A stretch of 45,392 nucleotides of DNA from contig JAUCBJ010000185.1 of assembly GCA_032718475.1 (NCBI GenBank), forward strand, positions 1 through 45,392, given 5' to 3'. Positions within the stretch are counted from its first letter, which is position 1, and each line of letters starts with the position of its first letter. This document shows, piece by piece, positions 1 to 31,644 of this stretch. The notes beneath the pieces are model-generated. The model was not told the origin of the DNA and ran no database searches. It saw only the letters and a list, made by a program, of their open reading frames with translations. The translations under genes were made by a program, and so were the position numbers. Source of the DNA: Nemertoderma westbladi. Its lineage: Eukaryota > Animalia > Xenacoelomorpha.

Positions 1-1177
1 TGTAAAAGCTTTTGCTGAATTGTCCGGTTATTTTTCCTTATTTTTCCCGTAAAATACTCTGTAGTTGGTTTACCAGGCATAAAAAGGCCGTGTCCTTGCT
101 GTACTGGTGTTTTAGCGGACATAAAAGCTATTTCTTCTGTATTTGTACTTTAGAGGACATAATCCGTAATTCCGTGACGTAAAAGCTCGATACTCTTGAA
201 AACAGTGTCGCTACCATGACGACGGCTAGCAGCTGATATTGCCACGTCGACGTTTCTTTGTTTCTTTGTTCTCTCGTTGTTCAGGTTGACCAATCAGAGC
301 GTTTGTTGTCTCTGTGTTGGAGGTGTATACAGAAACTCAGTAGTTCAGTGTTATGTTTTGCCCAGAGCCTAAGAACCGGCTTTTGGCACCTCCGTGTTTT
401 CAGTTTTTAGTCCTACACTAGTAGGCTTAATTATAAGGACATATATCCGTTATCTGCATACCATACATTCAACCATACCTAATCAAACAACCTGTGCATA
501 CTTTATATTGTTATACTGCTATTTACTGTCAGTTCTTCATAATATGGTTGATGAATTATTATATTTGGAATAACGATAAATAACCCCGAAACCCAATATT
601 CTTGATATACCGAAGGTAAGAGAGAAGGGTTACATATAACAATTGTGACTTATGTTAAAGTGGTTTGAAGTGAATCTAATGTTATTTGATAGACCCTACA
701 TGATTCGGTCCGTGTTCCTTTTATATGTGACTAAAATCAGTGAAGATCGGCAGATTAGTGTGCAGTATTGTGCAGCATTGTGTATGAGTGAGACTGATAA
801 CGAAGCATTTCCTAAAGAATGCGCCATATATGTGAATTGTAACTAAGCCATATCGTTGTGAGTAGTTTAAGTCATAACTCTGTTTGTATAGATAGAGCGC
901 CACGTCCTACAGGAACTGTTAATATTCCCCGAAGGTGAATAATATTGTCAGAGATTATATAATACTGTCAGTCGAATAATACATTAGGCTTACATAGCAA
1001 TAAAATTAAGCCGTCGAAATCAATCTCCCGGGTATATCCAACGGGTGAATGATCGCGCACAGATTGGTTTCAACTAGTGTAGTGAATCAAATACTTGTTA
1101 GAGGCTAAAGCGATTTATTATCTAGAAGACATCCTAATTTGGCGGGTTAAACTGCCAAAGGTCTGAAAGCGCGAACA
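1..1177 (+). repeat. 5' LTR
   Basis: Starts TGTAAAAGCTTTTGC, ends GCGCGAACA; same termini as the TSD-bounded solo LTRs at 30459-31644 and 32759-33872. Confidence 0.95.
231..300 (+). promoter_or_regulatory. Putative LTR U3 promoter elements (CAGCTG E-box; CCAATCAGAGC CCAAT box)
   Basis: CAGCTG at 231-236 and CCAAT at 290-294; both motifs recur in the same order in the diverged LTR copies near 31400-31460 and 32190-32250 (minus strand). Confidence 0.5.
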
Positions 1178-1188
1178 ATAACGGATAT
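1178..1188 (+). other. Primer-binding site position: ATAACGGATAT, non-tRNA, complementary to LTR 443-453
   Basis: Immediately follows the 5' LTR, lacks the TGG expected for tRNA CCA pairing, exact reverse complement of ATATCCGTTAT at 443-453. Confidence 0.65.
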
Positions 1189-1547
1189 CGTTTCTTTATT
1201 GCAGTAAGCAATAAAGTTGAAAGTACCGGTCAACCGGTAAACCTGAACGGTACATCTGTAGGTCAGTAGGCCCAACTGCCAGAACCGGTACTGCCGTAGG
1301 TCCGTAGGTCCAACTGCCAGAACCGGTACTTCTGTAGGTCCGTAGGCCTAACTGTCCTAACCGGTACTTCCGTATAAGTACATTAGTATTATTCGATTTG
1401 ATTGTTGCATACCGGTAGGCTGTTTAAGGGATTAGGGATTGATCACCCCTTATTCCTTTATATGGTTTACTTATTTCTGTCAAGTTTTATTTGTTTGTAG
1501 GCCAGTATTGAACAGAAGGCGTGTAAGCCTGATCAGATTGTACAGAC

Positions 1548-2120
1548 AATTTGTAGGCTGAGCTGTTGTCTGATTGCTGTTAGGTCTGAACGGATTACAG
1601 TGTGTGTAGAGCACCTGTCCGATTAAGTACGGTTAGGAAGTAGGGGCAGCAGATGCTGTAAGGTAAACCCCCAATTAAAGAATAAGTCGTACTACTGGGT
1701 TAGAACGCATACTGCCTAATCATTTCGGAGTCTGCATGTCCTGTAGTTTATTTAGGCTTGAGAGTAGTCTGCCATCGTTTAGTCTGTACTTTGTTTGTGT
1801 AAGTCTGTACGGGTAGCGTATAATTTTATTTAGATAATTTGTAGGCTGGATAGTTGTCTGGCTGTTATTGGGTCTGAACGGATTGCAGCGTGTGTAGATC
1901 ACTTGTCCGATAAAGAACGGTTAGGAAGTAGGGGCAGCGAATGCTGTAAGGTAAACCCCCAACTAAAGAATAAGTCGTACTACTGGGTTAGAACGCATAC
2001 TACCTAATTATTTCGGAGTCTGCATATACCGTAGTTTGTTTAGGCTTGATGGTAGTCTGTCGGTATTTGGTCTGCATTTTGTTTGAGTGGTTTGTACGTG
2101 TAGCGTAATATTTATTATTC
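1548..2120 (+). repeat. Two diverged tandem copies of a ~288-bp unit in the retroelement leader
   Basis: TAGAACGCATAC at 1701 and 1989; AATTTGTAGGCTG at ~1548 and ~1836. Confidence 0.85.
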
Positions 2121-3435
2121 AGAGTTTATGCGACTATCCGCAACATTCATTCCCCAAGTTTGTTCCTACAGTAATTGTGTTTGTTATACATACTGCTATA
2201 GTTAAATTAACCCCGGTACTACACGGGCTGCTTGGCGTAGGTAAAGACTGGTGATTTTGTGCACCGGTCACTCCAGCAGATGCCGTGGTTTTTTTAGCTG
2301 TTCAAGTATATTTAACTACAGATTATATGTTATACAAGTACTCGTACCTAATTTAGGGTTTAGTGTACAGTGCTTTCCGAAAGTAATTAGTGTAGGCATT
2401 ATATTTGTGTTGTAAAGTGGTTAATAGGCACGTTCGATTAGCTCTATTAACTTCTAGGTAGGAACACTCCGTGATACATAACGTAGTACCTATAGCGATA
2501 CGGCTATAGGTCGTCAGGCGGTGGTATTTTCCTATCTGGACGACGCAGTGTATTTGCTACTACGTATTATTTTCAAATACCGCAGTACCCTGTCAGTTGT
2601 AATAACCAGTTTCTAACCCTTTGTTAAGCTGGTTTGTAGACTTCTTGTAAAATTACCCTGAAAATTCGTATTTTGTGTTTTGTAAATTTTTGTGTTTATT
2701 TAGAGATTGTAATCTCACCCGAATTGTACGTAATTTGTAGTATTAAGTAACTTAGGTAAATTAGTATTATTTGTTTTAGTGTCCTATAAGTAACACTTCA
2801 CTGAAAGCGCACCGCTTTGTGTAGTGATTACTCCCTAGAAATAATAACATTTATTTCAAACATTGACTAAACCCATTAAAACGGGTATATATATATTATA
2901 AATCAAATCTAACGATTTATAAATCGTAGGCCTACCATACAACCATTAGGTCTCAATATCAGTTGGACTACTGCTCAAATAACGGTAATAAAGTAAGTAA
3001 AGTAACAAAGTAACCCTAAAATTCAGAAATTCAATTATTTAAAATAATTGATATACCGATATTTACGATAGGCCTATTATCTTTATTTCTATAAATTTAG
3101 GCTGAAATTATACCGGTACTTGTAATTAATTCTAGTCCAGAATTATATATACTACAAACTGTAAGCTGTATATCGGTATTCCCGATAGGCCTATTATATA
3201 TTTATATATATTTGTGCTAAAATTATACCGGTATTCTGTGATAAACCTAGTCTGTAATAATACTTATATAGTTATATATACTATAAGCATACCGGTATTC
3301 TAATATATTATATATATATCACGCTACACTGAGTAGCAGTATCGGTAATTAATTACTAGGCTAACAGTTAATACTGAATTACTAGACTTGCTTAGACTGT
3401 AATATAGCCGTAGGCATCCAACTGTACAAACAAAC

Positions 3436-6400
3436 ATGACTGACACAAGGCAAACTCTGTCAGATAGTCTTCTAGAAACAACAGTCTGTTTCTCAGATAG
3501 GAGTATAGAGAATCCCAGACCGAGGTCTGAAACCCCTCCTACTGTAAGAAAGACAACCCCTACAGTAGCTGTGTCAGAACCTAGGTTAGTAGAAGCGATT
3601 TCGCAATTTGCGAAGTTAGTGAAGCGCCGTTGGTCTGCCATAGGCACTCGGGCCCAAGTTAAGCGGGATCAAGAAGCAGCTGCCAAACAGCAGCAACCTC
3701 CTAGCCAAGAACCTAGTTCTCAGCGGCCCGAGAGCTCCAGTAGTTCGGATACTGTTGAGCGGACGCCCGAACGCGGAGCGAAGATGGCGGATACGGTTTA
3801 TGATGAACGGCCAACCTATGAAGAATCAACCGACGCCACTTCTTCTCAAGAAGAAAGCGAAGCGACAGCAGAGAAACCGCATAAGAGAGATGCCATTGAC
3901 ATCTATCTGTCAGACTATCAACGTTTTTTAGGTAATGACGAGTTGAGGAGAAGGTTAGAGGGACTTAGCCCTAATAGTGAAGGAACCAAGCTTGTGTTGG
4001 ATGCCATCGATGTGGAAATGAGGGCTGCGAATCAGGCTAAATTTGATGAACAACTCCGCCTGACACGAGTCCAAGAAGAACAAGTAAAGAAAAAACGGAT
4101 AGAAGATAGAAAGACAGCAGCATCGGCAGTGGCAGCGGCAGAAGCGGATAGAAAAGCGGCAGAGGCAGCGGCAGAGGCAAAAGCGGCAGCGGCAGAGGCA
4201 GAAGCGGCAGCGGCAGAGGCAAAAGCGGCAGCTGCGGCCGAAGCGGAAAGAAAAATAGCAGTAGCAGAAGCAGAACGGAGGGCGGCTGAAGAAACCATCC
4301 AATTAGAATTGGAAAACATTCAGGAGAATCAAGACTGCATAAATAAACAGTTAACAGCTAGTAATATGCAGATGATGAATCGATCTACTCCCAAAAGACA
4401 GGGATATACATCATCTGAGGAAGGCGATACCACCGATACTGAAGGCAAAGGAAATAGATCTCGTCTAAGCAGACGTAAAAGAACATTCCACCGTCAGAAA
4501 TTGCCTGATTTGCCTCCAGCTGTTAGAAGGCAACTAAATAGCACCAACTTAGGCAGTACAGAACCCACAGACCAAATAATTAAAATAGAAAGACTCCCTA
4601 CTATAGTAGATGAGCCTGAAATAATTAGGCCTGTTCTCGAAATCACCCCTTCGGTGATAGACACACCTGTGCTCCCTGAAGTTACCTCTAAATTCCCTCT
4701 GCATAGCACTAAGCTACCTGTGCCCCGTAGAACTGCCCCAGAGACAGTTCAGGTCCTGGACCCCGAGCGAAATATTCATAATTTGTCGCCCGTTGTCCAT
4801 CGTCCACCCGCTACAACGTTGGCGACTCCCGCTTCGGCGGTCGAATGGGTGGACGAGGGACGGCGGGGGATGGATATCCTGCTCGGGCAGATGCAGGAGA
4901 CTGTCCAGCAATTCAAGGGCACAGTAAGGGAAAGTAGGCTAGAGTTGCAAGAAGTGCAGCAAAGTATCGCGCTGGAACGCGATAAATTAGTAAATACTCA
5001 AAGAGGTATACCACCACCCTCTGTAACAATGTGTCAACCTGTTAGGTCTGAAGTATCTCATGCGCAAGGTGTGGAGCCTACACGCATATATACTGCTAGC
5101 GAAGTAGAAACTCCTATAGTGAACCCTATTAAGGGTAATTATAGACCTGTTGATAATGATATTCCCTATAGAACTGATCATAATCCGAGAAATTTATATA
5201 CCGATAATTCGATATTAAATAACACGATGGCCCAAGAAAGTTTTACGCGTCAAATGGCTAGAACCGAAGCCCGGCAAGCGGTAAAGGTGGGAGAGATCGT
5301 CAAGTTCAATGGAGATGAGATGAAATGGTTACCTTTTAATGAATATTACAAAGATAACATACAGAACTCTGTGCTATCTAATGGAGAGAAACTTAGATTC
5401 CTCATCGAGTGCTTGGAAGGATCTCCCAAGTCAATGGCGTTAAAATTTATTGGACATCCAGATGGATTAAGACAAGTTTGGGATACACTAAACATCAGGT
5501 ATGGTAATTGGACTAACATAGCTAGGTATTTATATGCGAAATTAATGGCGCCCCGAAAGTTTCTTAGCAGCGGGATTATAGAGTTTTCCGATGAGATTCA
5601 GGAGATCTGTAGACAACTAGATTGGTTAGGTAAGTCTCATGAATACCAGAATTCTATGGTTGTAGGAGCCTTAGCATCTACTTTGCCCAAGGGTGGAGTA
5701 GGTACACGCTGGGACAAGAAGGTGTTATATATGATGGAACAACAACGACGAGACCCTACCATGACTGATCTCATGTCATTCTTAGATAGAGAAGTGAAAT
5801 TACAGCTCCTAAGGCAGTCCAGAGAGAAGACATTGGAAAACAAGGTAAGTGAGAAACCCGTTTCTAGGAGAAGGGTAACACCAGTATGTTATACCGACGA
5901 CGGTGAAAGCCAAACTTCTCAAGGAGAGGACAGCGGGAAAGACACTGACAGATCTTATTATGTCAATAAAATGCCTAAAGATCAGGTAAGTAAATCCGAG
6001 TCTCGACCCAATGACAGAAGGGAACCGGTACAAAAAACCCTTCCTACGTCTCCTAAAAGAATTCAGGTGAGAAAGCCCGAGGAAAGAACAAGTGTGCACC
6101 ACATAGCACAGGTTAAAGTAAGTAACATCAAGCCAAAATGTGTGCTGTGCGACGGGCCCCACCGTTTAAATGCGTGTGATAAATTCCTGAGGAAATCACT
6201 AAAGGATAGACGTGAAGTGATGTGGGATAAGCGGTTGTGTTATAATTGCCTCAGACGAGGACACCAACGGCGAACCTGTTACTCCGACGCAAGGTGTGCA
6301 AAGTGCGGCGCAAAACATCATATCTTGTTGCACACGGAATTCGAACGAAACAGCCCGAGTCAGGTAAGTGAGTCCGAACTACATGTCCAATTCAGTGATG

Positions 6401-7743
6401 TGAACGACACTGATCAATCTGAGATGGAAGGATTCTATACGGACGAGTTCTCCGACGAAAACGAATCCTGTTACTTAATAAACACCACCGCAGTGTATCG
6501 AGCACTCATGTATGAGAAAGACACAGACAGCGACCTCACCCTAACTACTTCAGATCAACAACCATCTTGGAAAGCGCCAACTTCCAATATAGGAATCCGA
6601 GAATTTCCTGTAGTCCAGTTACGGGTCCACGGACCTCAGAAGAGCTATATAGTGAACGCCCTCCTGGACTCCGGTAGCACAGGAACATTCATCGATAAAG
6701 AACTAGCCGAAGTCATCTTTGCTGGACAACCCAAGTTCCGAACCAAGCTAAACATGTCAGGGATCATGCAGGTTTGGAATTCTACTGTAGCTGCCGACTA
6801 TTATATAGGTGAGTTGTCCACTCCACAGGATAAACTAGGAGAATACAGTATAAGGTCAGTAAAAATGGTGGCAATAAAGAACTTCGCTACCACCCAAGTG
6901 GAACCTTATAATTGGGACGAGGATGAGAGCATCCAACATCTTAAGATACCTCGATTCCAGACTGATTATCCTGGAGTGCAAATACTCATCGGCCAAAACG
7001 CGCATGAGGCGCTGGAGACATTAGAGAAACGACCTACTCAACCGCAACCACTTCAGACCTATGCGGTAAGAACTAGAGTAGGTTGGTACCTTACTGGACC
7101 TTCCCGTAGAACGCTCAGGGAAAGACTGCTTCAAGATCGCGTCTGCCAGGTGAGTGAATGGGAAGACGATACTAGTGAGGGAGACGACCCAACTGAGGGA
7201 ACACCACACTCCTCAGATAATGACAATCTTAACTCCAATGTAGATCAATGGAGATATTGCTCCAAGACGATGAATACAGCCGACATCGCTTCCAGAGGAG
7301 CAACTCCTCAAGAACTGACAGATACTACAGACCGGTTAGGTGAACCCGACTTCCTGAGTAAGGAGGATGAATGGCCTCCCCATCTTACTCCGACTGAGAT
7401 TAGACCAGCCAAGGGAGCGGAGAAAGTCAAACCAAAAACCCGGACGGGTGGAGCGGAGTTATTTGAACCCGGGATAGATCTGTCGGTATTACATATTGCC
7501 AGGGACGACGCCGTGGATCTGGACCTCCCCACCGCGAGTGGATCCTTCATGAAGATCAGAGAGAGCGATTGGAGCTCTGGAATATCAGACGTCTCGCAGG
7601 GACTCTCACCTCTCCTGCAGGGAGCGACGGACCACTATAGCTCCTGGAATCGGCTTTGTAAGGCCGTCGTGTACCTAGAGCGATGTTTCTATCGTCACTA
7701 TTCCAGGACGAAGAGGAAACCTGGAATTGTATTCGGGATGTAG
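3436..7743 (+). CDS. gag-pro: BEL/Pao Gag-aspartic protease polyprotein (1435 aa) with C-terminal RNase H/linker remnants
   Basis: Coiled-coil/Ala-rich N-terminus; DUF1759-like core (KFNGDEMKWLPF...EKLRFLIECLEG); CVLCDGPHRLNAC-CYNCLRRGHQRRTC-CAKCGAKHHILLH zinc knuckles; ALLDSGSTGTFI and ILIG protease motifs; RTRVGW; WRY...NTADIASRG; PDFL...EWP; YSSWNRL. No YxDD RT or DDE integrase motif seen. Confidence 0.92.
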   Translation: MTDTRQTLSDSLLETTVCFSDRSIENPRPRSETPPTVRKTTPTVAVSEPRLVEAISQFAKLVKRRWSAIGTRAQVKRDQEAAAKQQQPPSQEPSSQRPESSSSSDTVERTPERGAKMADTVYDERPTYEESTDATSSQEESEATAEKPHKRDAIDIYLSDYQRFLGNDELRRRLEGLSPNSEGTKLVLDAIDVEMRAANQAKFDEQLRLTRVQEEQVKKKRIEDRKTAASAVAAAEADRKAAEAAAEAKAAAAEAEAAAAEAKAAAAAEAERKIAVAEAERRAAEETIQLELENIQENQDCINKQLTASNMQMMNRSTPKRQGYTSSEEGDTTDTEGKGNRSRLSRRKRTFHRQKLPDLPPAVRRQLNSTNLGSTEPTDQIIKIERLPTIVDEPEIIRPVLEITPSVIDTPVLPEVTSKFPLHSTKLPVPRRTAPETVQVLDPERNIHNLSPVVHRPPATTLATPASAVEWVDEGRRGMDILLGQMQETVQQFKGTVRESRLELQEVQQSIALERDKLVNTQRGIPPPSVTMCQPVRSEVSHAQGVEPTRIYTASEVETPIVNPIKGNYRPVDNDIPYRTDHNPRNLYTDNSILNNTMAQESFTRQMARTEARQAVKVGEIVKFNGDEMKWLPFNEYYKDNIQNSVLSNGEKLRFLIECLEGSPKSMALKFIGHPDGLRQVWDTLNIRYGNWTNIARYLYAKLMAPRKFLSSGIIEFSDEIQEICRQLDWLGKSHEYQNSMVVGALASTLPKGGVGTRWDKKVLYMMEQQRRDPTMTDLMSFLDREVKLQLLRQSREKTLENKVSEKPVSRRRVTPVCYTDDGESQTSQGEDSGKDTDRSYYVNKMPKDQVSKSESRPNDRREPVQKTLPTSPKRIQVRKPEERTSVHHIAQVKVSNIKPKCVLCDGPHRLNACDKFLRKSLKDRREVMWDKRLCYNCLRRGHQRRTCYSDARCAKCGAKHHILLHTEFERNSPSQVSESELHVQFSDVNDTDQSEMEGFYTDEFSDENESCYLINTTAVYRALMYEKDTDSDLTLTTSDQQPSWKAPTSNIGIREFPVVQLRVHGPQKSYIVNALLDSGSTGTFIDKELAEVIFAGQPKFRTKLNMSGIMQVWNSTVAADYYIGELSTPQDKLGEYSIRSVKMVAIKNFATTQVEPYNWDEDESIQHLKIPRFQTDYPGVQILIGQNAHEALETLEKRPTQPQPLQTYAVRTRVGWYLTGPSRRTLRERLLQDRVCQVSEWEDDTSEGDDPTEGTPHSSDNDNLNSNVDQWRYCSKTMNTADIASRGATPQELTDTTDRLGEPDFLSKEDEWPPHLTPTEIRPAKGAEKVKPKTRTGGAELFEPGIDLSVLHIARDDAVDLDLPTASGSFMKIRESDWSSGISDVSQGLSPLLQGATDHYSSWNRLCKAVVYLERCFYRHYSRTKRKPGIVFGM

Positions 7744-8399
7744 CGACTCAATCACCCAGTCGGTCGTTTGTGTTTACCGGAAGGGAATAGAGGACTCTCC
7801 GGAAACTGTGGAAAGCAAGATTCTCTTCCCACGACCACCTCCCTAATCCTTCAAACATCTAGGGACTCCATAACGTAACAACATATGGAGTGGGTGTGTG
7901 ACTCTATTATTTTATATTATTTTATTATTTTTATATTTCTGTATGTATTACTATGTAATTTTATTATAATCGTTTTCTTTAATTTTATTCAGTAGAATGT
8001 TATTTTAGCGATTATTTAGTAGATTAGTGCAATATATATTCGCGTTTATTACTTAATTACGTATATATTATATTTAATGCGACGGCAAGAAATAATTCTT
8101 TTCCTCTTTCCTTACTGTCCGTATCATATTATAAATACGTGACTACAGTAAGATGAAATGTCCGTACTTATTAAAGTACAATAAAGCCACTACTATATTC
8201 AAGTATTATTGGTAGGCAGAGTATTAGGAATGCAAAGTTCAGATCCTCGTGTCTCGGCTAAACCAAGCTCTGGGTAGACCTTGGAAACGACTTGCCTCTT
8301 CACACTGACATTGCTTCGTGCGATATTGCTCTCATACCGTATATTAAATAATACATATAGTAGCGTGATGTCCCTTTAACAGTAGCGTATAACGCAAAA

Positions 8400-8710
8400 T
8401 AAATCTGTTAAACCCTTTGACCATCTGCAATTCTAGTCGATTAAGATATCGCGGCACCCACCGATATACTTGAAAGACAAATTTTAGAATCAGTGGTTAA
8501 CGTCCCCAGACAAGTTCTGGAATAAATTGGTGCCCATCTCAAATATTAATTATTTAATATTTGCAAATCTAATAAATCAAAATCTGTAAAATTCAGATCC
8601 TTCAACAATTCTAGTCAATTAAGATATCGTAGCATTTACCGATATTCTTAAAAAGACAATTGTCATAGAATTAAGGATCTTGTGTCCCCAGACATGTTCT
8701 AGAATCAAAA
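8400..8710 (+). repeat. Diverged ~180-bp tandem duplication in the retroelement 3' region
   Basis: CAATTCTAGTC(G/A)ATTAAGATATCG...TCCCCAGACA occurs at ~8428-8512 and ~8607-8694. Confidence 0.75.
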
Positions 8711-10936
8711 TATGTCAATTTAATTATCAAATAATAAAATTTCAGGGAATAAATTTAAATTCATGCCTTTTAATGAATTTAATAAATTGCCATTTTTACG
8801 CAATTTATAACATTCCCAAAATTCCATTAATTAATAGATCAAGGGAGCGGAGATTTATCTTATTATGAGTATGAGTGTGCGAAGTCTCCCAAACATAGTC
8901 AATAGCCGATAAAATTCATAAAGTCATGTATAAAACAGAACATTGATCATTAAAGAATTACTATTAAATAACATCCCAGATCTGTATCATTGGAATTACC
9001 CTAATTCTACCGCTAGCTTTGCATAATGTCACCATAGCAACAACCACGCTAGAATTAGAATTGAGTTAAAAGAACAATAGAAAGCTTGTCCCATTGAATA
9101 GCATAGGGAATAAATAGCGCACTGCTAGTATCCAAGGATACATAATAATACAGTGACATTCTGGAAGGCATTGACTAACGGACAAATGACCCGAGTGTGT
9201 GTAATTTGTGACAAGTTGTGTGTGTGGTATTTGTGAGTTTATAGGCGAATGTTACTACTAAGGTGTGTTTACAGTAGCGAGTCGCAATTGTGAAAGTAAC
9301 CCTAACTCTCCAGTAAGAACCTGAGGTGTATCTAAGCCTTTGGGACGGACAGTCGAGTGACTTGTACCGGTTGTCGTTGTCGTTGTGCGGCTATGTCGTT
9401 GGCGAAAGTACAGCGGCGACGACACATCGGTGCTGAGGATCTCGTACTGTCCGGGGGCGGATTGGGGTAGGCAGCGACGCCCGCTCGCCTAAATATAAAC
9501 TCATTATAATATGGATAAACTCATATATAGCAGATATGACGGAGTTGATAGAAGATGGTCTTAGTATCGGGGAGCGATATACTCTACTTTTACAAGCGTT
9601 TGTGGATAGCTTAATACGCGGCGACGTTAGTCCAACTGCTGCGGAGGACGATGGTCGTTATATCGAACCGCCAATGTCCCAAGAGCAGCTCGCGCGAGTT
9701 GGACTATAGAAAATTCGCTGCTCGATATACGCAGCGTAATGGTACGTATATGGTCTTCTTAACTACTGGTCATCCTATCGATTTACATAATACGGACTAT
9801 GTCGACTATATATCCTGCCCAGCGGAGTCGGAACCATAAACTGAAATTCGAATGCGAAAATTCTATTCGAAATCGACTCGAAAGAAAAGACACTAAAGAA
9901 ACAAATAAACGCGGTAACTCCAACGTATATTTGGAATTCTTGATAGAAGCATTGTAACAACAAATAAATATCACCCGCATTTCCCCTACCAGACGTGCGT
10001 CTTTGGTATTATTATGATAAATGCCCTAGACCCAACTAATAAACGGAAAGACATAAACATCCACGGAAACGTTGTGTTAAACACAGTTGTGCTCGTTATA
10101 TTTACTGGAGTTTCGAGCGAAACTTGTTTGACGTATCACCTATGCCACTCGGCTCGAACGATCCTGGAGTAAACCTACGATCAGAGTCCCGGAATACTCG
10201 GTCAAACCTCCTCATTCCTTAGTTGGACCTCAGACCTGCGATCCTGGTGGTGTCGCGGATCCTCGCGGACTGTATTCACTGTTCAAAGATCTAGTGCTAC
10301 CCTAACAATTAATCGGTAACACTCCGACAGTGATTTCTAGCTAGCCGCCCATCTTACCTAGCCGGATTGTGACGCGGACATTTAATATCGCCGTTTAACC
10401 CTTACCATCGTCCCGGCTTGACACGATATAACCTGTCACCAGAGTGGCGGAGAACGTTGTACCAAACGAGTTAAACGCTATTCTACAAAGATCAGAAAGG
10501 AAACCTACGTTTGTTCAGATAAACGTAAGTTATAACAGCAAGTCCAAGCGATAAACGAATTGTCTTTATCTCAGTTCGATTGTGAAATCCAGAATCTCTA
10601 AGAAGATATCGCACTTAGACAACCCCATTCTCTGCGAGAGTTTTTGGATGAACGTATCCAGCTACGAGCGGAGGAAAATCAGCTCGAGGAGAAGCATATC
10701 GAAACGGCGGATACCCCGACCATAATCCTACACCTTCTGATGCAATCATATTGCACCCTTCACCCAGGATTTATAGCCCTCCTAGTAAAGTGGCTCCCCC
10801 CAAAGAGAAAAGGACTCTTGCTAGCCTCAAGAAACTGCGTAAACGCCGTCCGCGCAAAGAAACTAACTGTTTAGAGTATCTTTATGTTTTAGAAACTGTG
10901 ATTTTTATATTTTATAGACTGAAAATCCCATTTTCT

Positions 10937-10944
10937 GGGAGCGG
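10937..10944 (+). other. Short polypurine tract (GGGAGCGG)
   Basis: G-rich tract directly abutting the TGT start of the 3' LTR. Confidence 0.65.
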
Positions 10945-12121
10945 TGTAAAAGCTTTTGCTGAATTGTCCGGTTATTTTTCCTTATTTTTCCCGTAAAATA
11001 CTCTGTAGTTGGTTTACCAGGCATAAAAAGGCCGTGTCCTTGCTGTACTGGTGTTTTAGCGGACATAAAAGCTATTTCTTCTGTATTTGTACTTTAGAGG
11101 ACATAATCCGTAATTCCGTGACGTAAAAGCTCGATACTCTTGAAAACAGTGTCGCTACCATGACGACGGCTAGCAGCTGATATTGCCACGTCGACGTTTC
11201 TTTGTTTCTTTGTTCTCTCGTTGTTCAGGTTGACCAATCAGAGCGTTTGTTGTCTCTGTGTTGGAGGTGTATACAGAAACTCAGTAGTTCAGTGTTATGT
11301 TTTGCCCAGAGCCTAAGAACCGGCTTTTGGCACCTCCGTGTTTTCAGTTTTTAGTCCTACACTAGTAGGCTTAATTATAAGGACATATATCCGTTATCTG
11401 CATACCATACATTCAACCATACCTAATCAAACAACCTGTGCATACTTTATATTGTTATACTGCTATTTACTGTCAGTTCTTCATAATATGGTTGATGAAT
11501 TATTATATTTGGAATAACGATAAATAACCCCGAAACCCAATATTCTTGATATACCGAAGGTAAGAGAGAAGGGTTACATATAACAATTGTGACTTATGTT
11601 AAAGTGGTTTGAAGTGAATCTAATGTTATTTGATAGACCCTACATGATTCGGTCCGTGTTCCTTTTATATGTGACTAAAATCAGTGAAGATCGGCAGATT
11701 AGTGTGCAGTATTGTGCAGCATTGTGTATGAGTGAGACTGATAACGAAGCATTTCCTAAAGAATGCGCCATATATGTGAATTGTAACTAAGCCATATCGT
11801 TGTGAGTAGTTTAAGTCATAACTCTGTTTGTATAGATAGAGCGCCACGTCCTACAGGAACTGTTAATATTCCCCGAAGGTGAATGATATTGTCAGAGATT
11901 ATATAATACTGTCAGTCGAATAATACATTAGGCTTACATAGCAATAAAATTAAGCCGTCGAAATCAATCTCCCGGGTATATCCAACGGGTGAATGATCGC
12001 GCACAGATTGGTTTCAACTAGTGTAGTGAATCAAATACTTGTTAGAGGCTAAAGCGATTTATTATCTAGAAGACATCCTAATTTGGCGGGTTAAACTGCC
12101 AAAGGTCTGAAAGCGCGAACA
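10945..12121 (+). repeat. 3' LTR
   Basis: Near-identical to 1-1177; one difference noticed (A941 vs G11885). Confidence 0.95.
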
Positions 12122-12500
12122 ACACGTTTGATCCATGGGAATTGAAATGTTTTGTTAATCTGTTTGCTAGGATGTATGGCAACTCTGTGCTTTGTCCACT
12201 TCTGTAGCACATTTGAAGATCACAAAGTCTGATCTTTTTTATTTCATTCACTATTAGGATCTCCCATATTTTAGTTAATATTGGCATCACCGAGATAGCA
12301 CGGTAATTCTCGTTGGTATGTATATCTCTATTTCCTGGTTTGATGTGGGGAAGAATGAGAGTTAAACATAAATTTGTAGGCATGTGGTGTGACTGGTTTA
12401 TGGAGTTATATAGGACTGCGGAAAATTATATAATTCTTCTGAGTCACCATATATCAGGTGTTCTGAGGTAAGACTATGCGCGTTTACAATTTGGATTGAA
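12122..12500 (-). pseudogene. Non-LTR retrotransposon (RTE/RTE-X-like) reverse transcriptase fragment interrupted by the LTR element
   Basis: LTSEHLIYG...ILPHIKPG...NENYRAISVMPILTKIWE...LQMCYRSGQST are LINE RT N-terminal motifs; homology stops at the LTR end. Confidence 0.8.
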
Positions 12501-17555: not shown

Positions 17556-17924
17556 ACCACCTGGCTTTGCATATTGAACGTGCGTTTGGAAATAAGTTCG
17601 TGCTACCCTTCCGTGGGTGGTAGATGTCGCGGTTATGTATTGGTGGGTGGGGGAGGGGGGGGGGGGGGGTGCAGATTAAAAGGGGTGAACACGTACTGTC
17701 CCCCTTTCTTTGATTAATTGGTGATGTGGGTTAATCTCTCATAACCTGATTTTGTGATACAGTCGCACAATTTTAATTTGTATCTCATAACTGGGCCTCG
17801 TGCTGCGCGAAGGCCCCACGAACGTGTAATATATTGTATGTGTATGGGTGGTAACATGAATCATACTAAGTGCGAAGGGCGATAGTGCCCATGGTTAATG
17901 TTTGTACCCTTGATTGATATCTGT

Positions 17925-18590
17925 CCCTCGTTTATTGTTTGTGTCCCTCATTAATGTTTGTGTCCCTTATTAATGTTTGTGTACCTCATTAATGTTTGTG
18001 TCCCTCATTAATGTGTGTGTCCCTCATTAATGTTTGTGTCCCTCATTAATGTTTGTGTACCTCATTAATGTTTGTGTCCCTCATTAATGTTTGTGAACCT
18101 CATTAATGTTTGCGTCCGTCATTAATGTTTGTGTCCCTCATTAATGTTTGTGTCCCTCATTAACTCGTTTATTGTTTGTGTCCCTCATTAATGTTTGTGT
18201 CCCTCATTAATGTTTGTGTCCCTCATTAATGTTTGTGTACCTCATTAATGTTTGCGTCCCTCATTAATATTTGTGTCCCTCATTAATGTTGTGTCCCTCA
18301 TTAATGTTTGTGTCCCTCATTAATGTGTCCCTCATTAATGTTTGTGTCCCTCATTAATCTTGTGTCCCTCATTAATGTTTGTGTCCCTCATTAATATTTG
18401 TGTCCCTCATTAATGTTTGTGTCCCTCATTAATGTTTGTGTCCTATATCAATGTTTATGTCCCACATTATTGTTTGTGTCCTACATCAATGTTTATGTCC
18501 CACATTAATGTTTGTCACCCTGATTAATGTTTGTCCCACTAATGTTTGTGGCGCTGATAAATATCTATCCCTCATTTAATGTTTGTGTCA
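17925..18590. repeat. 19-bp minisatellite (CCCTCATTAATGTTTGTGT)n, ~35 units
   Basis: Period 19 (units at 18021 and 18040); a few inverted units also at ~13845-13925. Confidence 0.95.
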
Positions 18591-20087
18591 AAGTTGCTAT
18601 AAGTTACTCTAGGTTGCCGGACGTTTTGGACAATTTGGTCAGCAACTAGCAACTTAATTTGAGCAACATTAACTTTTAGTCTCCGTTATATGAGGCATCT
18701 TTAACAGCAACAAAGTTCGCGTTTACATAGAGCAATTTGATCGCAACCTGAAATGCTTACTAAGTTGCTGATAGAGTTGCTCAAAATGTTGCCACGTACT
18801 GTAGAAAAAACAGCCTTTAATTAATCTTCATGGCGTAGCTAGACTTTGTTCTTACTGTAGAGTACCACCCATGGCTATATTTTGTACTTAGAGTTCCGCT
18901 TTCGTGAATCTAAATTTTGTTCTTATAGTTCTGCATTTGGCTACATTTTGTTCAATTTGTATTGATACATGATTCTAACTACAGTCCCGTACTTATTTTA
19001 GAAGCAATTTATACCAAAATATCAAAAACTTATGGAGCACTTTAGAATTTTGAATTCAAAAATTTCCAACATGTGCGCAAGTGTGTTAGCTGTATTGTAT
19101 GTGCTTATTTGTTATTATTGCGTTCACAGGTAATACTAACACCTGCTCATGTGCTAGTTAACATGTTAGATAGCACGTATTAGCTAATAACAAATGCGCA
19201 CATGTATCACGTGCGCACTACGCACTAAATAATTAAGGACGCACGATACGCCTTGGCTATAATTTGATATATTTTGCGTGTTTTTTGTAAAAATTCGGAC
19301 TTATGGTGTTTTGCCTAATTGAGGATGCCTTGTTTTCTAGGCAATACCCCGCAACTATCGTATAGTTACGGGATAATACCAGAAAATGGTGTTCCCCTTT
19401 GTTTTGGCAAAACACCATAAGTCAGAATTTTTACAAAAAAACCGCAATATATTTCAAAGGTGATTCTAAATTAAATAAAAAGTTTAGTTATATGAATTCT
19501 ATATATATTTATTTGTCAAAAAACACAATCAAGTAAACTGAGGCATCTCTCCAAAAAATAAACAGTTTTTATCGATTATTATCTCAGAACTACAAAAATC
19601 GACTTAGGGGGTTCTGCCTTGAGGGTGACGATATGTAATACAGTAAGTATAATAAGAAAGCCAATGCTATGCTGGCTGCCTCAATTAGTACAAGGTGTGT
19701 GTGTGTAATGTATACTACTGTAGGAAGGATGGTAGTGGTAGACAGTGGTGGTCTGCTCTCTGGTGTGTTGATTGGCAGCCTGGCTCCATAGATGGGAAGG
19801 AATCTGCTTGCCTCAGGGGGCTGACGAGTAGCAGATACAATTTTACAAATCCACCCGTTTGATGGGTGGAATTCAATTAATTCACTTCCAAGTCGACAAC
19901 CTGTCCGTTTTATAGAACGCCCATTATTTTACCTCATCTGAGTTTAACTACCACTTGTGATACTAACTAATACTAACTAACTAATACTATACACACACAT
20001 TACTTTTTAATTACTTTAATAAATTAATTTTAATCTGCTTAATAATCATACATAAATAAAGTATCAATTTATTGCTGATAATACCTG

Positions 20088-21284: not shown

Positions 21285-22372
21285 GCCACGCCGACGCCGC
21301 CCCCGCTTGCGTTGACCGCGCCCACTCCGCCACCGGCTGCATTGACTGCGCCCATGCCGCCCCCGGTTGCATTGACCATGCCCACGCTGCCCCTGGCTGC
21401 GTTGACCGCGCCCACGCCGCCCCTGGCTGCGTTGACCGCGCCCACACCGCCCCCGGCTGCGTTGACCGCGCCCACACCGCCCCCGGCTGCGTTGACCGCG
21501 CACACGCCGCCCCCGGCTGCGTTGACCACGCCCACGCCGACCCCGGCTGCGTTGACCGCGCCCATGCTGCCCCCGGCTGCGTCGACCACGCCCTCGCCAC
21601 TCCCGGCTGCGCTGACCGCGCCCACGCTGCCCCCGGCTGCGTTGACCATGCCCACGCCGCCCCTGGCTGCGTTGACCGCACCCACGCCGCCCCCGGCTGC
21701 GTTGACCGCGCCCACGCCGCCCCCGGCTGCGTTGACTGTGCCCACGCCGACCCCAGCTGCGTTGACCGCGCCCATGCTGCCCCTGGCTGCGTTGACCGCG
21801 CCCATGCCGCCCCCGGTTGCATTGACCATGCCCACGCTGCCCCTGGCTGCGTTGACCGCGCCCACGCCGCCCCTGGCTGCGTTGACCGCGCCCACACCGC
21901 CCCCGGCTGCGTTGACCGCGCCCACACCGCCCCCGGCTGCGTTGACCGCGCACACGCCGCCCCCGGCTGCGTTGACCATGCCCACGCCGCCCCTGGCTGC
22001 GTTGACCGCACCCACGCCGCCCCCGGCTGCGTTGACCGCGCCCACGCCGCCCCCGGCTGCGTTGACTGTGCCCACGCCGACCCCAGCTGCGTTGACCGCG
22101 CCCATGCTGCCCCTGGCTGCGTCGACCACGCCCTCGCCACTCCCGGCTGCGCTGACCGCGCCCACGCCGCCCCCGGCTGCGTTGACCGCGCCCACGCCGA
22201 CCCCGGCTGCGTTGACCGCGCCCATGCTGCCCCCGGCTGCGTCAACCACGCCCTCGCCACTCCCGGCTGCGCTGACCGCGCCCACGCCGCCCCCGGCTGC
22301 GTTGACCGCGCCCACGCCGCCCCCGGCTGCGTCGACCGCGCCCACTCCGCCCCCGGCTGCTTGACCGCGCGC
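21285..22372 (+). repeat. GC-rich 30-bp tandem repeat (GTTGACCGCGCCCACGCCGCCCCCGGCTGC), ~36 units, between ORF1 and ORF2
   Basis: Exact period of 30 with substitutions but essentially no internal indels; higher-order block duplications visible. Confidence 0.95.
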
Positions 22373-22385
22373 ACCCCCCCCAGAT

Positions 22386-25364
22386 GTGACTACCGCGGCC
22401 CGGGGCTGCATCGGCCGCGTCAACAGCAACATTCCTAATAAAGGACTGTCTACTAGGCTATGCTTAATGAATCCAAGATCAGTCCGAAATAAAAGCGCCG
22501 AAATCGTCGAATATCTAACCACAAATAGCGTTGATGTTTGTGTTCTTACTGAAACTTGGCTGAGAACGGATGACGATGCAGTAAAGAGGCTATGTTCCCC
22601 TGATGGATACCAAATGATCGATTTTCCACGTGTAAGAAACCATGCCGGTGGAACAGGCATTATCTTACGAGGTACCTATAAAATTGAACAACTTAATGGT
22701 GGAGAGAAACGTTCATTCGAATACTCAGTTTGGCAACTTCAACAATCACAAATTCATATCTTGTTAATAATCATTTATCGCCCCCCTTACAGCACAAACC
22801 ACCCGACTACTTGTTCTATGTTCTTTGAGGATTTTCCATTGTTTATCGAATGCTACATAGCTCGACAAGAGCGTCTATTGATCCTAGGTGACTTCAACAT
22901 TCATGTGAACAATCAAACGGATACAAATTCCCTTAAGTTCATTGACCTTATAGAGTGTATGGGATTAGAACAGCATGTTCATTGGCCAACCCACGAGTCA
23001 GGTAACACATTGGATCTCATTCTCACACGGAACTGCCACGAGTTAAACATCACGGTTGACGAACCCTCCTATTTTATATCCGACCATGCAGTTGTTAGTT
23101 GCTGTATTGATATCCCAAAACCATCTGCAAACTTAACCAATGTTCAATATCGAAATATCGGAAAAATTAACTTGAACAATTTCAAACACGATATAACAAC
23201 ATCGGTACTATGTCAGCCTAGTTTCGACGATCTATCAATTGTAAATAAATCCGAACTTTATAATTTTACAATTTCGAAACTGATTGATAAACACGCCCCT
23301 TTAAAATCGAAAGCAACTAGACTACGAGATGGGAACAAGTGGTTCAGCCATGAGGCGCGCCGCCTAAAACAACAGCGTCGTAAAGCAGAAAAAAGGTGGT
23401 GTAAAACTGGTAAAATAGAAGATAAAGTTAAGTTTAAAGAAATTCGAAACATATACGCAAAAAAACTAACAACTGATCGCCAGGAATACTATCGTGGATT
23501 AATCGGCGCATGCTCAGGTGACCAAAAGAAGCTATTTAATGTAATAAAATCATTATCTAAGCAAAATCAAGTGATTAAATACCCACAACATAATAATGCT
23601 CTAGAACTTGCCAACAATTTCGCAGATTACTTCGCTTCCAAGATTAAACTCATACGTGCTGAACTGGATAACGCAGCAGCTGCAAATGACGACGGAGACG
23701 TCATTGGAAACGACCATGTAGTAATCCCAGATGACACGTCAGCATCCTTATGTAATTTTAACACTCTGTCTGCAGAAGAAGTTACGAAACTGGTCAATAC
23801 TGCACCGAATAAACAATGTCCACAGGATCCCCTACCGACGCAGTTACTGAAGTCTTGTCTACCGGCTCTCATTCGGCCTATTACTACCATGGTCAATCAA
23901 TCACTGGAGACTGGAGTGGTCCCGCCACTGTGGAAAATTGGGACAATTGCACCAATACCGAAAAAACCTTCCTCAGATCGGTCAACAAATGCAATTAAAA
24001 CTGTTAAAAACAAGAACTTTCGCCCAGTTAGTGGCATAGCTTTTATCTCAAAGATAACTGAGAGGGCAGTAATAGCTCAAGTTCAGCCACACATTGACAC
24101 CTATTACCAATTGCCAATATTTCAATCGGCGTATAGGAAACATCATAGTACCGAAACGGCCCTCATCAAAGTCCAATCCGATATTCTCCGAAACATGGAT
24201 AACAAACAAATAACTTTACTTGTGTTACTTGACCTCAGCGCCGCTTTCGATACTGTAGATCACACTCGACTGATGAACGTCCTTCGAAATCGCCTTCATA
24301 TCTGCGGCACCTGTCTCAAATGGTTCCGGTCCTTCCTATCTGGCCGAGTCCAACGAGTAGCCACGTTAGGGGCCACATCCGACGATCAGCTACTGGAATA
24401 TGGTTTCCCTCAAGGATCATGCTTATCATGCACACTTTTCCCCAACTACAGTGCTGGCCTCTTGGAGGTAATACAGCACCATTTACCATTGGCTGGCCAC
24501 GGTTTTGCTGATGACCATCAGGTCTACTGCTCCTTCCAACCATTAACATCGTCTAACGAAAGAGCAGCCATAGAGTCCATGGAAGCCTGCATCGCGGAGA
24601 TGCGCAGCTGGTTATTAAAACATCGGCTCAAGCTAAACGACGACAAGACTGAATTTATCTTGCTCGGATCGAAATCTCAATTGAGTAAGCTGTCCTCAAT
24701 CTCAATTCGCGTTGGAAACTTTGATATCGAACCGGTTAAATCGGTCAGAAACCTTGGAGCCTGGTTCGACTCCGAGATGAGAATGAATAAATTTATATCT
24801 AAAACATGCAGCGCCGCATACTACTACCTGCACAACATTCGCTCAATTCGGAAATATCTCGACACTAAGGCCGCAGAAACAATTATACATGCTCTCGTGA
24901 CTAGCCGCATAGACTACTGTAACGCCCTTCTCTATGGAGTCCCAAGCTACCAATTACAGAAACTCCAACGTGTACAAAACACAGCTGCTAGGTTGCTTAC
25001 AGGTGTACACAAATACGACCATATATCGCCGACGTTGAAATCCCTCCACTGGCTGCCTGTGCGCAAACGTGTAGAATTTAAAATACTGCTGATGACGCAC
25101 AAGGCCTTGGTCGGCCACGCTCCCAAATATATAATCGAAATGCTCCATAAAGTTAGTCGCGATCGCCTCCAAACTAGAAGTTGTAGCACAGTAAGTCTCG
25201 TCGAACCACGGTTCCAGTGCTACACTCTCGGGTGGCGGGCGTTCGAGGTATGCGCGCCCCGGCTGTGGAACAAACTACCGGCTTCGCTACGTGATATCCA
25301 GTCTACGGCATCATTCAAAGGAAAACTAAAGACTCACCTGTTCACCCACCCACCTATAAAATAG
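22386..25364 (+). CDS. LINE ORF2: apurinic endonuclease + reverse transcriptase (L2 clade-like)
   Basis: NPRSV, LTETWL, IYRPP, GDFNIH, TLDLI, SDH (APE); NFRPVS, QSAYRKHHSTET, LDLSAAFDTVDH, PQGS, FADD, LKLNDDKTE (RT); RIDYCN, LHWLP, APRLWN C-terminal motifs. Start codon is uncertain (GTG). Confidence 0.95.
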   Translation: MTTAARGCIGRVNSNIPNKGLSTRLCLMNPRSVRNKSAEIVEYLTTNSVDVCVLTETWLRTDDDAVKRLCSPDGYQMIDFPRVRNHAGGTGIILRGTYKIEQLNGGEKRSFEYSVWQLQQSQIHILLIIIYRPPYSTNHPTTCSMFFEDFPLFIECYIARQERLLILGDFNIHVNNQTDTNSLKFIDLIECMGLEQHVHWPTHESGNTLDLILTRNCHELNITVDEPSYFISDHAVVSCCIDIPKPSANLTNVQYRNIGKINLNNFKHDITTSVLCQPSFDDLSIVNKSELYNFTISKLIDKHAPLKSKATRLRDGNKWFSHEARRLKQQRRKAEKRWCKTGKIEDKVKFKEIRNIYAKKLTTDRQEYYRGLIGACSGDQKKLFNVIKSLSKQNQVIKYPQHNNALELANNFADYFASKIKLIRAELDNAAAANDDGDVIGNDHVVIPDDTSASLCNFNTLSAEEVTKLVNTAPNKQCPQDPLPTQLLKSCLPALIRPITTMVNQSLETGVVPPLWKIGTIAPIPKKPSSDRSTNAIKTVKNKNFRPVSGIAFISKITERAVIAQVQPHIDTYYQLPIFQSAYRKHHSTETALIKVQSDILRNMDNKQITLLVLLDLSAAFDTVDHTRLMNVLRNRLHICGTCLKWFRSFLSGRVQRVATLGATSDDQLLEYGFPQGSCLSCTLFPNYSAGLLEVIQHHLPLAGHGFADDHQVYCSFQPLTSSNERAAIESMEACIAEMRSWLLKHRLKLNDDKTEFILLGSKSQLSKLSSISIRVGNFDIEPVKSVRNLGAWFDSEMRMNKFISKTCSAAYYYLHNIRSIRKYLDTKAAETIIHALVTSRIDYCNALLYGVPSYQLQKLQRVQNTAARLLTGVHKYDHISPTLKSLHWLPVRKRVEFKILLMTHKALVGHAPKYIIEMLHKVSRDRLQTRSCSTVSLVEPRFQCYTLGWRAFEVCAPRLWNKLPASLRDIQSTASFKGKLKTHLFTHPPIK

Positions 25365-26369
25365 ACTCATTTTTAGCCGATCGTTTTTAAAAAACTTTGT
25401 TTTTACTTTTCTTAATTATGTACTCTACGCGGTTTTCTTTTTATTTAAATTGACTAACCTAACTCTGATTAGCGCCATAGAATACTACCGGTAATGTTGG
25501 CGCTATACAAATGATTAAATATTATTATTAAATATTATTAAATTCTTAATTAAAAGTTAACTATGCTGTAATTTTAATCTTTACAGCACCAATATATATA
25601 GTTTTGCGGTAGTATTGGAGAAATACAAACTTATCCACCCGTTTGAGGGGTGTCTGTCCAGCCCTTTGACGGGTGAAAGTTCCTAGCTGCAGTACCTGGT
25701 ACTTGTTAGATTCCTCGGATAGTTCCCTTTGCAGCCATAAACACAACAATGTTTTCCCATATTATTATTATTAATATTATTGGTATTAAATTATTAAAAA
25801 TAATTAATAATCCGAAAAAGCTGAAATGTAATCATTCAGTTGTCAATCCAGTCTGCCAGTATGTCAGTGTTTAAGAGTACCTGTCTGCCAGTACAGCGGT
25901 AGGCTAAAATGTAAAAGAATGAAAAACATTGACCCAGCTAGCGCAGTGGGGTGCGGATTTACAGGATTACTGCTGTGCCAGTCCTTCAGTATAGTACAGT
26001 AGTAGTCCTTGACAATATCCAATACCGGTACTGTAGTAAGCTATGCTGCAATATTCCTACTACAGTACTATCACTGTATCAGACTGTCCACTTCCACTGT
26101 TAGGTAACTTCAAACTTGGTAAAATACCGTACTCCACTACACAGCACACAGCACTACCTGGCTGCCTGACTACTCCATACTCCTATACTCCAGTACAGCA
26201 GTAGGTACTCCTGTACTCACTAGGCCTATTTGCCTATTTACAAATTGATTAGGCTCCCTACTGCACTAGGTAAATTACTTCATGATTTATTTGTGGCATT
26301 TGATTGTACGGCAGTAGTGAGTGATCATCCTAAGTTTCATTATTTCGCGTTTGTTCAGGCGATGCTAAG

Positions 26370-27110
26370 ATGTGTAATAACGTATTTGTCGGATTGATCG
26401 CCTACGTTACCGGGTTTTGGACCTACTTAGTAAATATGTTTCGCACTGGAGTACGTCAAGCGATCCAACATCAGACGGTCCGTTACGATTACTGTCCTTT
26501 GGGTGCGATATCACGCCAACGACTATCGATGGTGCGTCGTAAAACTCTGGTGCTGGATCTCGACGAAACCTTGATACACTCGCACCACGATGGCGCGATG
26601 CCTCCTATCGTTACGAACGTCCAGGAACGGCCCACCACACCGCCAGACTTTATTCTTAGGGTCACCATCGACCAACACCCCGTAAAGTTCTTCGTTCACA
26701 AACGCCCCCATGTTGATTTCTTCCTGGACATTGTAAGTCGGTGGTACGACTTGGCTATATTCACCGCTTCTATGGAGATTTACGGGACGGCAGTGGCGGA
26801 TCAATTAGACAATCAGCGTAGGATATTGTGCCGGCGTTATTACAGACAACACTGCGTCGTAGACTTCAAAAACTTCGCTGGTTACAACAAGAACTTACGA
26901 GTAATTACTAACGATTTAGCTAATATTTGTATAATAGATAATTCCCCGGTCGCATATAGGGGTTTCCCGGATAACGGAATCCCAATAAAATCTTGGTTTG
27001 CCGACCCGACTGACACTTGTCTGCTCAATCTGTTGCCATTTCTTGATGCGTTGCGGTTTTGTAATGATGTTAGGACTGTTTTGCATCGGAATATATGTGC
27101 CATTCGTTAA
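26370..27110 (+). CDS. CTDNEP1: CTD nuclear envelope phosphatase 1 (Dullard/Nem1 family HAD phosphatase)
   Basis: N-terminal hydrophobic helix, [85 protein letters not shown]; 246 aa matches the family length. Confidence 0.96.
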
Positions 27111-27606: not shown

Positions 27607-28154
27607 TGATAGAAAGTTACAGCTGTATTGGAACTGACTGATAGAAAGTTACAGCAGTATTGGAACTGACTGATAGAAAGTTACAGCAGTATTGGAACTG
27701 ACTGATAGAAAGTTACAGCAGTATTGGAACTGACTGATAGAAAGTTACAGCAGTATTGGAACTGACTGATAGAAAGTTACAGCAGTATTGGAACTGACTG
27801 ATAGAAAGTTACAGCAGTATTGGAACTGACTGATAGAAAGTTACAGCAGTATTGGAACTGACTGATAGAAGGTTACAGCAGTATTGGAACTGACTGATAG
27901 AAAGTTACAGCAGTATTGGAACTGACTGATAGAAAGTTACAGCAGTATTGGAACTGACTGATAGAAAGTTACAGCAGTATTGGAACTGACTGATAGAAAG
28001 TTACAGCAGTATTGGAACTGACTGATAGAAAGTTACAGCAGTATTGGAACTGACTGATAGAAAGTTACAGCAGTATTGGAACTGACTGATAGAAAGTTAC
28101 AGCAGTATTGGAACTGACTGATAGAAAGTTACAGCAGTATTGGAACTGACTGAT
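27607..28154. repeat. 32-bp minisatellite (TGATAGAAAGTTACAGCAGTATTGGAACTGAC), ~17 near-perfect units
   Basis: Units at 27671 and 27831 are 160 bp apart (5x32); no spacers. Confidence 0.97.
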
Positions 28155-30458: not shown

Positions 30459-31644
30459 TGTTCGCGCTTTTAGACCTTTAGCAGTTTAACCTGCCAATTT
30501 TAGTTGTCTTTTTGTTTATAAATCGACTTTAGCCTAGATCAATTATTTAAGGTACTCAAGTTACATCCGCCGAAGCCAGTCTGTGCGCGACCATTCACCC
30601 ACAGTTAAGGGAGACTGGATTCGGATGCTTTGATAGTGATTGCGGTGTAGACCTACTGTATTATTCGATTGATCGTTACTATATAATCTCTGACAATATA
30701 TTTACTTTCGGGGAAATATTAACAGTTCCTTTAGGACGTGGCGCTTTAAGTATATAAAACAGAGTTATGACTTATACTAAACACAACGAGATGGCTACTG
30801 AGTTTCGTAAAAAGCGCATTCTTTAGGAGATGCTTTATTAACCTTCACACTACTTCACACGGCTTCACACTACTTCACACTGATCTGCCGACTGTCACTG
30901 AATTTGATCATATATAAGGAGGATCGCAACTGACACATGTAGGGATTATGAAAAAGCATTTAATTCACACAAAAAAACCACTATAATGTAAGTCGCAGTT
31001 GCTACCGGTAAACCTGTTCCTCTAACCTTCAGTAATCAAGGAGATTGGGGGTTTTATGATTATTCATCGGTATTCTCCAAATATATCAGCAATATACATT
31101 AACATAACACCAATTAATAACAGAAGCAAAATAATGCGGTGAACAGTCAGTATGTGTTACTTATGCAGTGTTCCATGTGCAGCAATGCATGAATTGCGGT
31201 GTGATGCGGTAGTTGAATCGTTAATAGTTTTACGTTCTTGTAATCAAAGCCATCAGATGAGATGTTTAGGCCAAAAGTCTGAAACTTCTACAGAAGTACA
31301 GAAGAATTTCCAAGCCGGTGTTCTGAGGCTCAGAAAAGGTAAACAAAGACCGTAATGCATTGCGCGGTTTTCCGTAGACCTCTGTCAGAAATAAAGTGAA
31401 AATCGCTCTGATTGGCTGAACAGAACAAGAGGTTCCACGTTTACAGTAAATCAGCTGACAGATTTCGTCATCTGAGCTCCAGTCTTTTAGAGTATTAGGC
31501 GCATTACGGCAAAAATGACTTGTTATGTCCGCTAAAGCACCTACACGGTACATTGCGGATAAAATGACTTGTTATGTCCGCTAAAGCACCTACACGGTAC
31601 ATTGCGGAGAAAAATGACTTGTTATGTCCGCAAAAGCTTTTACA
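30459..31644 (-). mobile_element. Solo LTR, diverged relative of the 1-1177 LTR
   Basis: Minus strand reads TGTAAAAGCTTTTGC...AAAAGCGCGAACA; 5-bp TSD AACTT at 30454-30458 and 31645-31649; internal ~50-bp tandem repeat at 31510-31630. Confidence 0.93.

Follow-up and report, generated by a model that had tools for sequence, protein, structure and literature searches.

The 45,392-nt window (the whole stretch of DNA analyzed here) opens with a BEL/Pao-type LTR retrotransposon that, judged from its sequence, probably uses its own RNA, and not a tRNA, to prime minus-strand DNA synthesis. The observations that speak for self-priming are an exact 11-nt match between the LTR and the bases that directly follow it, a constrained position for the matching motif in sister LTRs, pairing of post-LTR bases with the element's own LTR in distant relatives, compensatory changes within those pairings, and conservation of a hairpin in U5.

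A BEL/Pao-type element with near-identical LTRs

The element is bounded by a 5′ LTR of TG...CA form (1-1177, forward strand) and a 3′ LTR (10945-12121, forward strand) that carries a second copy of the 11-mer at 11387-11397. The two LTRs are 99.9% identical, and since they differ by just one mismatch, at 941, the insertion is young. Identity of the pair runs one base past the LTR end, to 1178, but two solo LTRs in the window fix the end at 1177: both stop at this CA, and both lie between 5-bp target duplications. The window itself starts at LTR base 1. A short purine-rich tract adjoining the 3′ LTR (10937-10944, forward strand) is the putative polypurine tract (PPT), with G-rich counterparts before the 3′ LTRs of relatives.

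Several candidate signals lie within the LTR, all on the forward strand. The CCAAT box that the earlier note placed at 290 is present at 290-294, where it may act in transcription, and is aligned in two of the three sister LTRs found in the window. A TATA-like word, TATAA, of doubtful role, occurs at 432-436, 11 nt before the candidate primer, and is kept in one of the three. A possible splice donor (616-621) retains its GT in both full sister LTRs, and no canonical acceptor follows it inside the LTR; this conserved, donor-like site might serve splicing over the primer-binding site (PBS) into a gag mRNA. The sole AATAAA of the LTR (999-1004), likely the polyadenylation signal, is missing from one of the sisters (solo1). 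A hairpin of seven pairs is predicted in U5 (1139-1158), and all seven pairs are kept in all three LTRs compared, with a two-sided change at one pair and one-sided changes at four. Folding also predicts a 9-bp hairpin in the leader (1194-1216, forward strand). This leader (1189-3402) is unusually long for a non-coding one, at 2.2 kb, and contains 38-nt and 288-nt repeats; the non-coding 3′ region (7744-10944) is likewise unusually long, at 3.2 kb, and its three forward frames gave no Pfam match.

The element has a single open reading frame (3403-7743, forward strand; 1446 codons, first ATG at 3436), which encodes a Gag with a DUF1759 match (Pfam, E 2.9e-12), zinc knuckles, an aspartic protease and, directly after the protease, a remnant comprising the RNase H end and the linker before integrase. 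Searches by tblastn with six full-length BEL/Pao proteins bearing Peptidase_A17 matched only the Gag, the protease and the RNase H end, in that order, and together with DUF1759 they bear out the BEL/Pao identity given in the earlier note. Neither Pfam nor tblastn matched a reverse transcriptase (RT) or integrase anywhere in the element, and this copy therefore needs a partner element; we read it as a non-autonomous deletion derivative of BEL/Pao, not an autonomous member. Membership in BEL/Pao (Belpaoviridae) is thus indicated by Gag, protease and RNase H region sequence and by paired TG...CA LTRs with a polypurine tract, while the PR-RT-RH-IN order with placement in an RT tree is lacking, RT and integrase being absent, as is a PBS that would pair with the 3′ end of tRNA-Arg or tRNA-Gly of the host. 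The Ty3/gypsy chromovirus polyprotein that defines the Tf1/sushi group is not what this element encodes, its protein being of BEL/Pao type. The Gag-protease shares no more than 27% identity with any row of the comparison. In a quick tree, from which two relatives (L005 and L010) were left out, it sits on a branch of 2.94 and falls in no well-supported clade and outside the group holding the relatives described below.

In the sequencing data, 27,987 contigs from run X1 fall on 1-2600, which suggests a large family, X1 being possibly the source sample and its depth not a copy number. The LTR-end pattern gave no matches in viral contigs or metagenome contigs, and protein-led searches of viral contigs found no relatives.

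Elsewhere in the window, an uninterrupted CTDNEP1/Dullard phosphatase ORF (26334-27110, forward strand; Pfam NIF) is 59-68% identical to the listed homologues, which come from many animal phyla, and we take it to be an intronless gene or a retrocopy in a fast-evolving invertebrate. A LINE-type endonuclease-RT ORF of 999 codons (22365-25364, forward strand) has a GC-rich 30-nt array ahead of it (21289-22381). Further arrays occur at 17922-18589 (19 nt) and 27607-28154 (32 nt), a G-rich satellite with a 20-nt unit in about 298 copies (38613-45392) runs past the window end, and short MITE-like elements with long terminal inverted repeats are present at 19263-19458 and 36715-36925.

Eleven post-LTR bases complement the element's own LTR

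The PBS position adjoining the LTR (1178-1188, forward strand; ATAACGGATAT) is the exact reverse complement of 443-453 (forward strand), the candidate self-primer. This agrees with the earlier note, both in the 11-nt extent of the match and in its start at the first base after the LTR's CA (offset 0). The match ends on both sides at 11 nt, and its only occurrences are the one at 443 and the copy at 11387 in the 3′ LTR. No TGG is found in the first six post-LTR bases, as had also been remarked from the first reading. Among sites in the LTR, 443-453 is the best duplex partner of 1178-1188, at -12 kcal/mol vs -8.8 for the next site.

The claim that such a match is unlikely by chance holds up: the uniform expectation of 2.8e-4 per LTR was reproduced, and it rises to 8.7e-4 with the dinucleotide frequencies of the LTR and to 0.0025 when summed over offsets 0-5. 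Matches of at least 11 nt occur at 7 of 9,723 internal positions (the element's own site counted) and in 3 of 1,078 six-offset blocks. The 11-nt match is improbable for one element, yet where many windows are scanned it does not settle the matter by itself.

When candidate transcripts were folded, the pairing probability was 0.6-1.0 only for the transcript 443-1235 and at most 0.02 for seven other choices of start and end, a result too fragile to weigh for or against the pairing. For contigs from four sequencing runs on 1-2600, none of the 40 letter-difference rows listed out of 363 falls at 443-453 or 1178-1188, which speaks neither for nor against variation of the two sites; within the PBS site, at 1181, two low-depth contigs depart from the reference. 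In contigs of other copies the departure comes at 454-461, directly after the candidate primer, and the sister LTRs also diverge there (454-522), so that the motif at 443-453 ends a conserved block.

Two further sources for a primer were considered and rejected. An element-encoded tRNA-like primer, for which Cer7 is reportedly a precedent, found no candidate, as ARAGORN predicted no tRNA genes in the window and Rfam gave no convincing RNA family in 1-12200 (two sub-threshold matches). A primer formed across a splice junction in the window element's own LTR reached 7-8 nt at best, no improvement on the contiguous 11-nt match.

The motif position is constrained in sister LTRs

Our search of the window identified three sister LTRs: solo1 (30459-31644, reverse strand; 67% identical to the element LTR, with a 5-bp target duplication), a partial LTR comprising the 5′ part only (31850-32371, reverse strand; 50% identical), and solo2 (32759-33872, forward strand; 49% identical, with a 5-bp target duplication). 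Their homologous motifs are at 31221-31231, 32018-32028 and 33142-33152, respectively. The partial LTR and solo2 are 45% alike overall and identical at all 11 bases of the column of 443-453. Just 4 of their 290 gapless 11-column windows are identical, three of them at the LTR 5′ terminus and the remaining one at 443, and the solo1 motif agrees with each of these two LTRs at 10 of 11 bases. The sister motifs differ from 443-453 of the window element at 4-5 bases (4 of 11 for the partial LTR and solo2), and the sister LTRs contain no complement to 1178-1188 beyond 6 nt. Since the sister motif differs at 4 of 11 bases and the full sister LTRs match the site for at most 6 nt, the 11-nt match is family-specific. 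The motif position is thus constrained with subfamily-specific letters, as expected of a primer; a promoter element could also be under such constraint.

Distant relatives pair post-LTR bases with their own LTRs

The earlier note had proposed that post-LTR and LTR 11-mers be compared for covariation among family members. The sister LTRs, being solo or partial, carry no PBS, and the comparison is hence limited to distant BEL/Pao relatives. The query was an alignment of eight full-length proteins of the non-insect-BEL group, which gave the best matches to the RNase H remnant; it yielded 90 loci, 11 plus a further 79 from the best 80 of at least 482 confirmed stretches. Both LTR copies defined the 5′ LTR end in 17 usable loci (the ends of L009 and L031 being set by hand), the other 73 being dropped for want of such a pair, and collapsing near-identical copies left 15 families. 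This sample was chosen by the query, contains no tRNA-primed BEL/Pao control, and is kin to the window element at the level of the superfamily only.

In a first pass, which allowed any GT-AG pair and offsets 0-3 in 14 loci, 9 of the 14 had a spliced match of at least 11 nt, and 0-2 of 60-120 null positions reached 11. After this first look a canonical-site filter was added, offsets were widened to 0-5 and the pyrimidine threshold was lowered from 10 to 9; these changes are post hoc, but they were the same for the controls. With these settings, post-LTR bases pair with their own LTR for 10-15 nt in 13 of the 15 families vs 4 of 240 cross-comparisons, two of these four being between sister families. 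The paired stretch always starts 0-5 nt past the LTR end, and the two misses are near misses: a canonical junction in L005 gives 10 of 11 paired positions, and the pairing in L063 is contiguous but set 9 nt beyond the LTR. A TGG is present in the first six post-LTR bases of 1 of the 17 loci.

Of the 13 positive families, three (L006, L055 and L067) pair contiguously and ten pair only across a splice junction. Intron-like LTR segments of 76-451 nt with a strong donor and acceptor are present in ten loci (L001, L002, L010, L017, L020, L024, L031, L038, L042 and L045), and in each, 10-15 nt across the joint between the exons are complementary to the post-LTR bases, with only 3-9 of the paired bases in exon 1. 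A looser scan of 53 other loci gave eight matches vs three in the reversed control; all eight are no more than 5 nt from an LTR-like end, and two duplicate families already counted.

Compensatory changes were observed in two sister pairs. In L001 and L002, whose LTRs are 86% identical, 2 of 11 paired positions have changed on both sides, and in L055 and L063 (71%) this is so for 1 of 10, with no pair broken in either comparison. The proposed covariation thus holds in the distant relatives, where these analyses supported self-complementarity as an apparently recurring and sequence-specific trait.

TATA-like words precede the primers in 2 of the 15 relative loci, at differing distances, and a TATA word at a fixed distance before the primer was accordingly rejected. 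Several of the loci L001-L011, animal-type BEL/Pao elements, have both LTRs; their contigs are filed as bacterial genomes and are likely host DNA binned into MAGs. L090 consists of tandem elements with common LTRs and a period of about 6.1 kb.

A model for priming by the element's own RNA

In the model that we favor, transcription would start at or upstream of 443, RNA bases 443-453 would anneal to 1178-1188, and a cut just after 453 would be made, by analogy with Tf1, probably by the RNase H domain of the RT of an intact partner element. The RT would extend the new 3′ end from base 1177 back toward 454, and the product would then transfer to the 3′ repeat, which would run to about 1020 if the AATAAA at 999 is used. 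[quoted passage not shown]

It is here that our reading departs from the earlier note, whose case for self-priming stands insofar as there is no mature-tRNA site and self-complementarity recurs in distant relatives, but which had also placed the transcription start near 443 and made the first 11 nt of the RNA the primer. We find no support for that start: if TATAA at 432-436, a word absent from two of the three sister LTRs, were a working TATA box, the start would be downstream of 443. First exons as short as 3-9 nt are improbable, and because exon 1 of the spliced relatives supplies only this many paired bases, a longer 5′ piece that primes from its 3′ end is a likelier primer than the first 11 bases. 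On this view, transcription could begin somewhat upstream of 443 and still be compatible with the model.

Weighing against self-priming are the long branch of the protein, a primer-to-LTR-end distance of 724 nt (vs 44-203 nt in 15 relative loci), the contiguous form of the match where 10 of 13 families are spliced, the TATAA at 432, and the contigs departing at 1181.

Among the alternatives, the one that survives best, though we consider it unlikely, is that the pairing is selected but structural, the site and either the 3′ LTR copy (11387-11397) or the 5′ copy serving to circularize, dimerize or package the RNA while another primer is used. The presence of the 11-mer in both LTRs would suit such a role, covariation demonstrates pairing and not priming, and the duplex may extend upstream of 443 (-23.2 vs -12.0 kcal/mol), albeit at a borderline p of about 0.05-0.06 (112/2000, 103/2000 and 63/1081) and with no extension beyond chance on the other side (1306/2000 shuffles). 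The location of the paired stretch argues the other way, as it always begins 0-5 nt past the LTR end, the place required of a primer. No other primer site stands out, ARAGORN predicted no tRNA genes in the window, and Rfam gave no convincing RNA family in 1-12200.

It is very improbable that the match in the window element arose by chance and that its family primes otherwise, whatever the distant relatives do. The per-element p of about 0.001-0.003 has to be set against the very many windows in the scan, and the element is phylogenetically far from the relatives tested and unlike them in geometry; against this, the motif position holds the one internal 11-mer that two diverged sister LTRs have unchanged in common, and the length and offset of the match agree with the pattern in 13 of 15 other families. 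Also very improbable is a host tRNA fragment or other small RNA as primer, with the LTR match incidental or secondary, as in the half-tRNA priming of some Ty1/copia elements (Osser, Bryco, Gymco-II and Bianca in the available text of PMC6317226), since the absence of TGG excludes a mature tRNA 3′ end and the post-LTR sequences of the 16 compared families differ mutually and track their own LTRs, with no common sequence.

Extending self-priming by the element's own RNA to its superfamily, we lean toward the broader proposal that a large and widespread animal branch of BEL/Pao has swapped tRNA priming for self-priming. In most of its members, splicing of two LTR exons would create the primer and so act as a replication switch, the window element would be an intron-free form in a very divergent lineage, and self-priming may go far back in BEL/Pao or have originated on more than one occasion. 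The splice-junction form in the relatives would tie host splicing to the start of reverse transcription, and self-priming in the window element would take the mechanism to a third LTR superfamily, beyond fission-yeast gypsy, where it is shown, and plant copia, where it is predicted. It would also account for elements in which no PBS can be found and offer a simple test for annotation tools.

Comparison with known systems

The replication of BEL/Pao is poorly understood according to the ICTV (PMC8742986), which describes these elements as tRNA-primed, with a site of 18 nt that complements host tRNA-Arg or tRNA-Gly. The main text of a BEL/Pao survey (PMC3118150) contains neither PBS, primer nor tRNA, and the Sinbad paper (PMC554778) never mentions PBS or tRNA. 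Self-priming in BEL/Pao is not reported in the available portions of PMC3601003, PMC8220671, PMC3286476, PMC5443660, PMC6934838 and PMC5445492, and we found no report of it in the titles and abstract openings of the literature searched; an earlier remark in print is possible. In common with Belpaoviridae/Semotivirus, the window element has a Gag with DUF1759, zinc knuckles, a protease, the RNase H end motif, an LTR of about 1.2 kb and a short PPT; it differs in having no 18-nt tRNA-Arg or tRNA-Gly site, no RT and no integrase (PMC8742986).

The closest parallel in priming is with the Tf1/sushi group. In Tf1, as described in the available text of PMC7175516, the transcript's first 11 bases pair with the PBS, and the cut by RNase H falls between bases 11 and 12; Tf2 and Tj1 (S. 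japonicus) prime like Tf1 (available text of PMC4600332 and PMC5341516), and self-priming is predicted for Tcn1 (available text of PMC6317226). In what these sources present, Tf1 and Tf2 of Schizosaccharomyces pombe, Tj1, Tf1/sushi elements and Tcn1 are like the window element in having no tRNA site and 11 post-LTR nt that complement a stretch of the LTR, and the length (10-15 nt) and place of the pairing in the relatives agree with the 11 nt of Tf1. The Tf1 group, however, consists of Ty3/gypsy chromoviruses, whereas the window element belongs to another superfamily, BEL/Pao. For Tf1 the available account has the primer as the first 11 bases and cleavage by RNase H shown, whereas the window element is known from its sequence. 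Also unlike Tf1, the motif in the window element is 724 nt from the LTR end, and many of the relatives build the complement across an intron.

Outside Ty3/gypsy, self-priming has likewise been predicted from sequence for the plant Ty1/copia TAR lineage, Houba and Osr-1 (available text of PMC6317226). These are plant copia elements with another pol order, whereas the window element is an animal BEL/Pao element.
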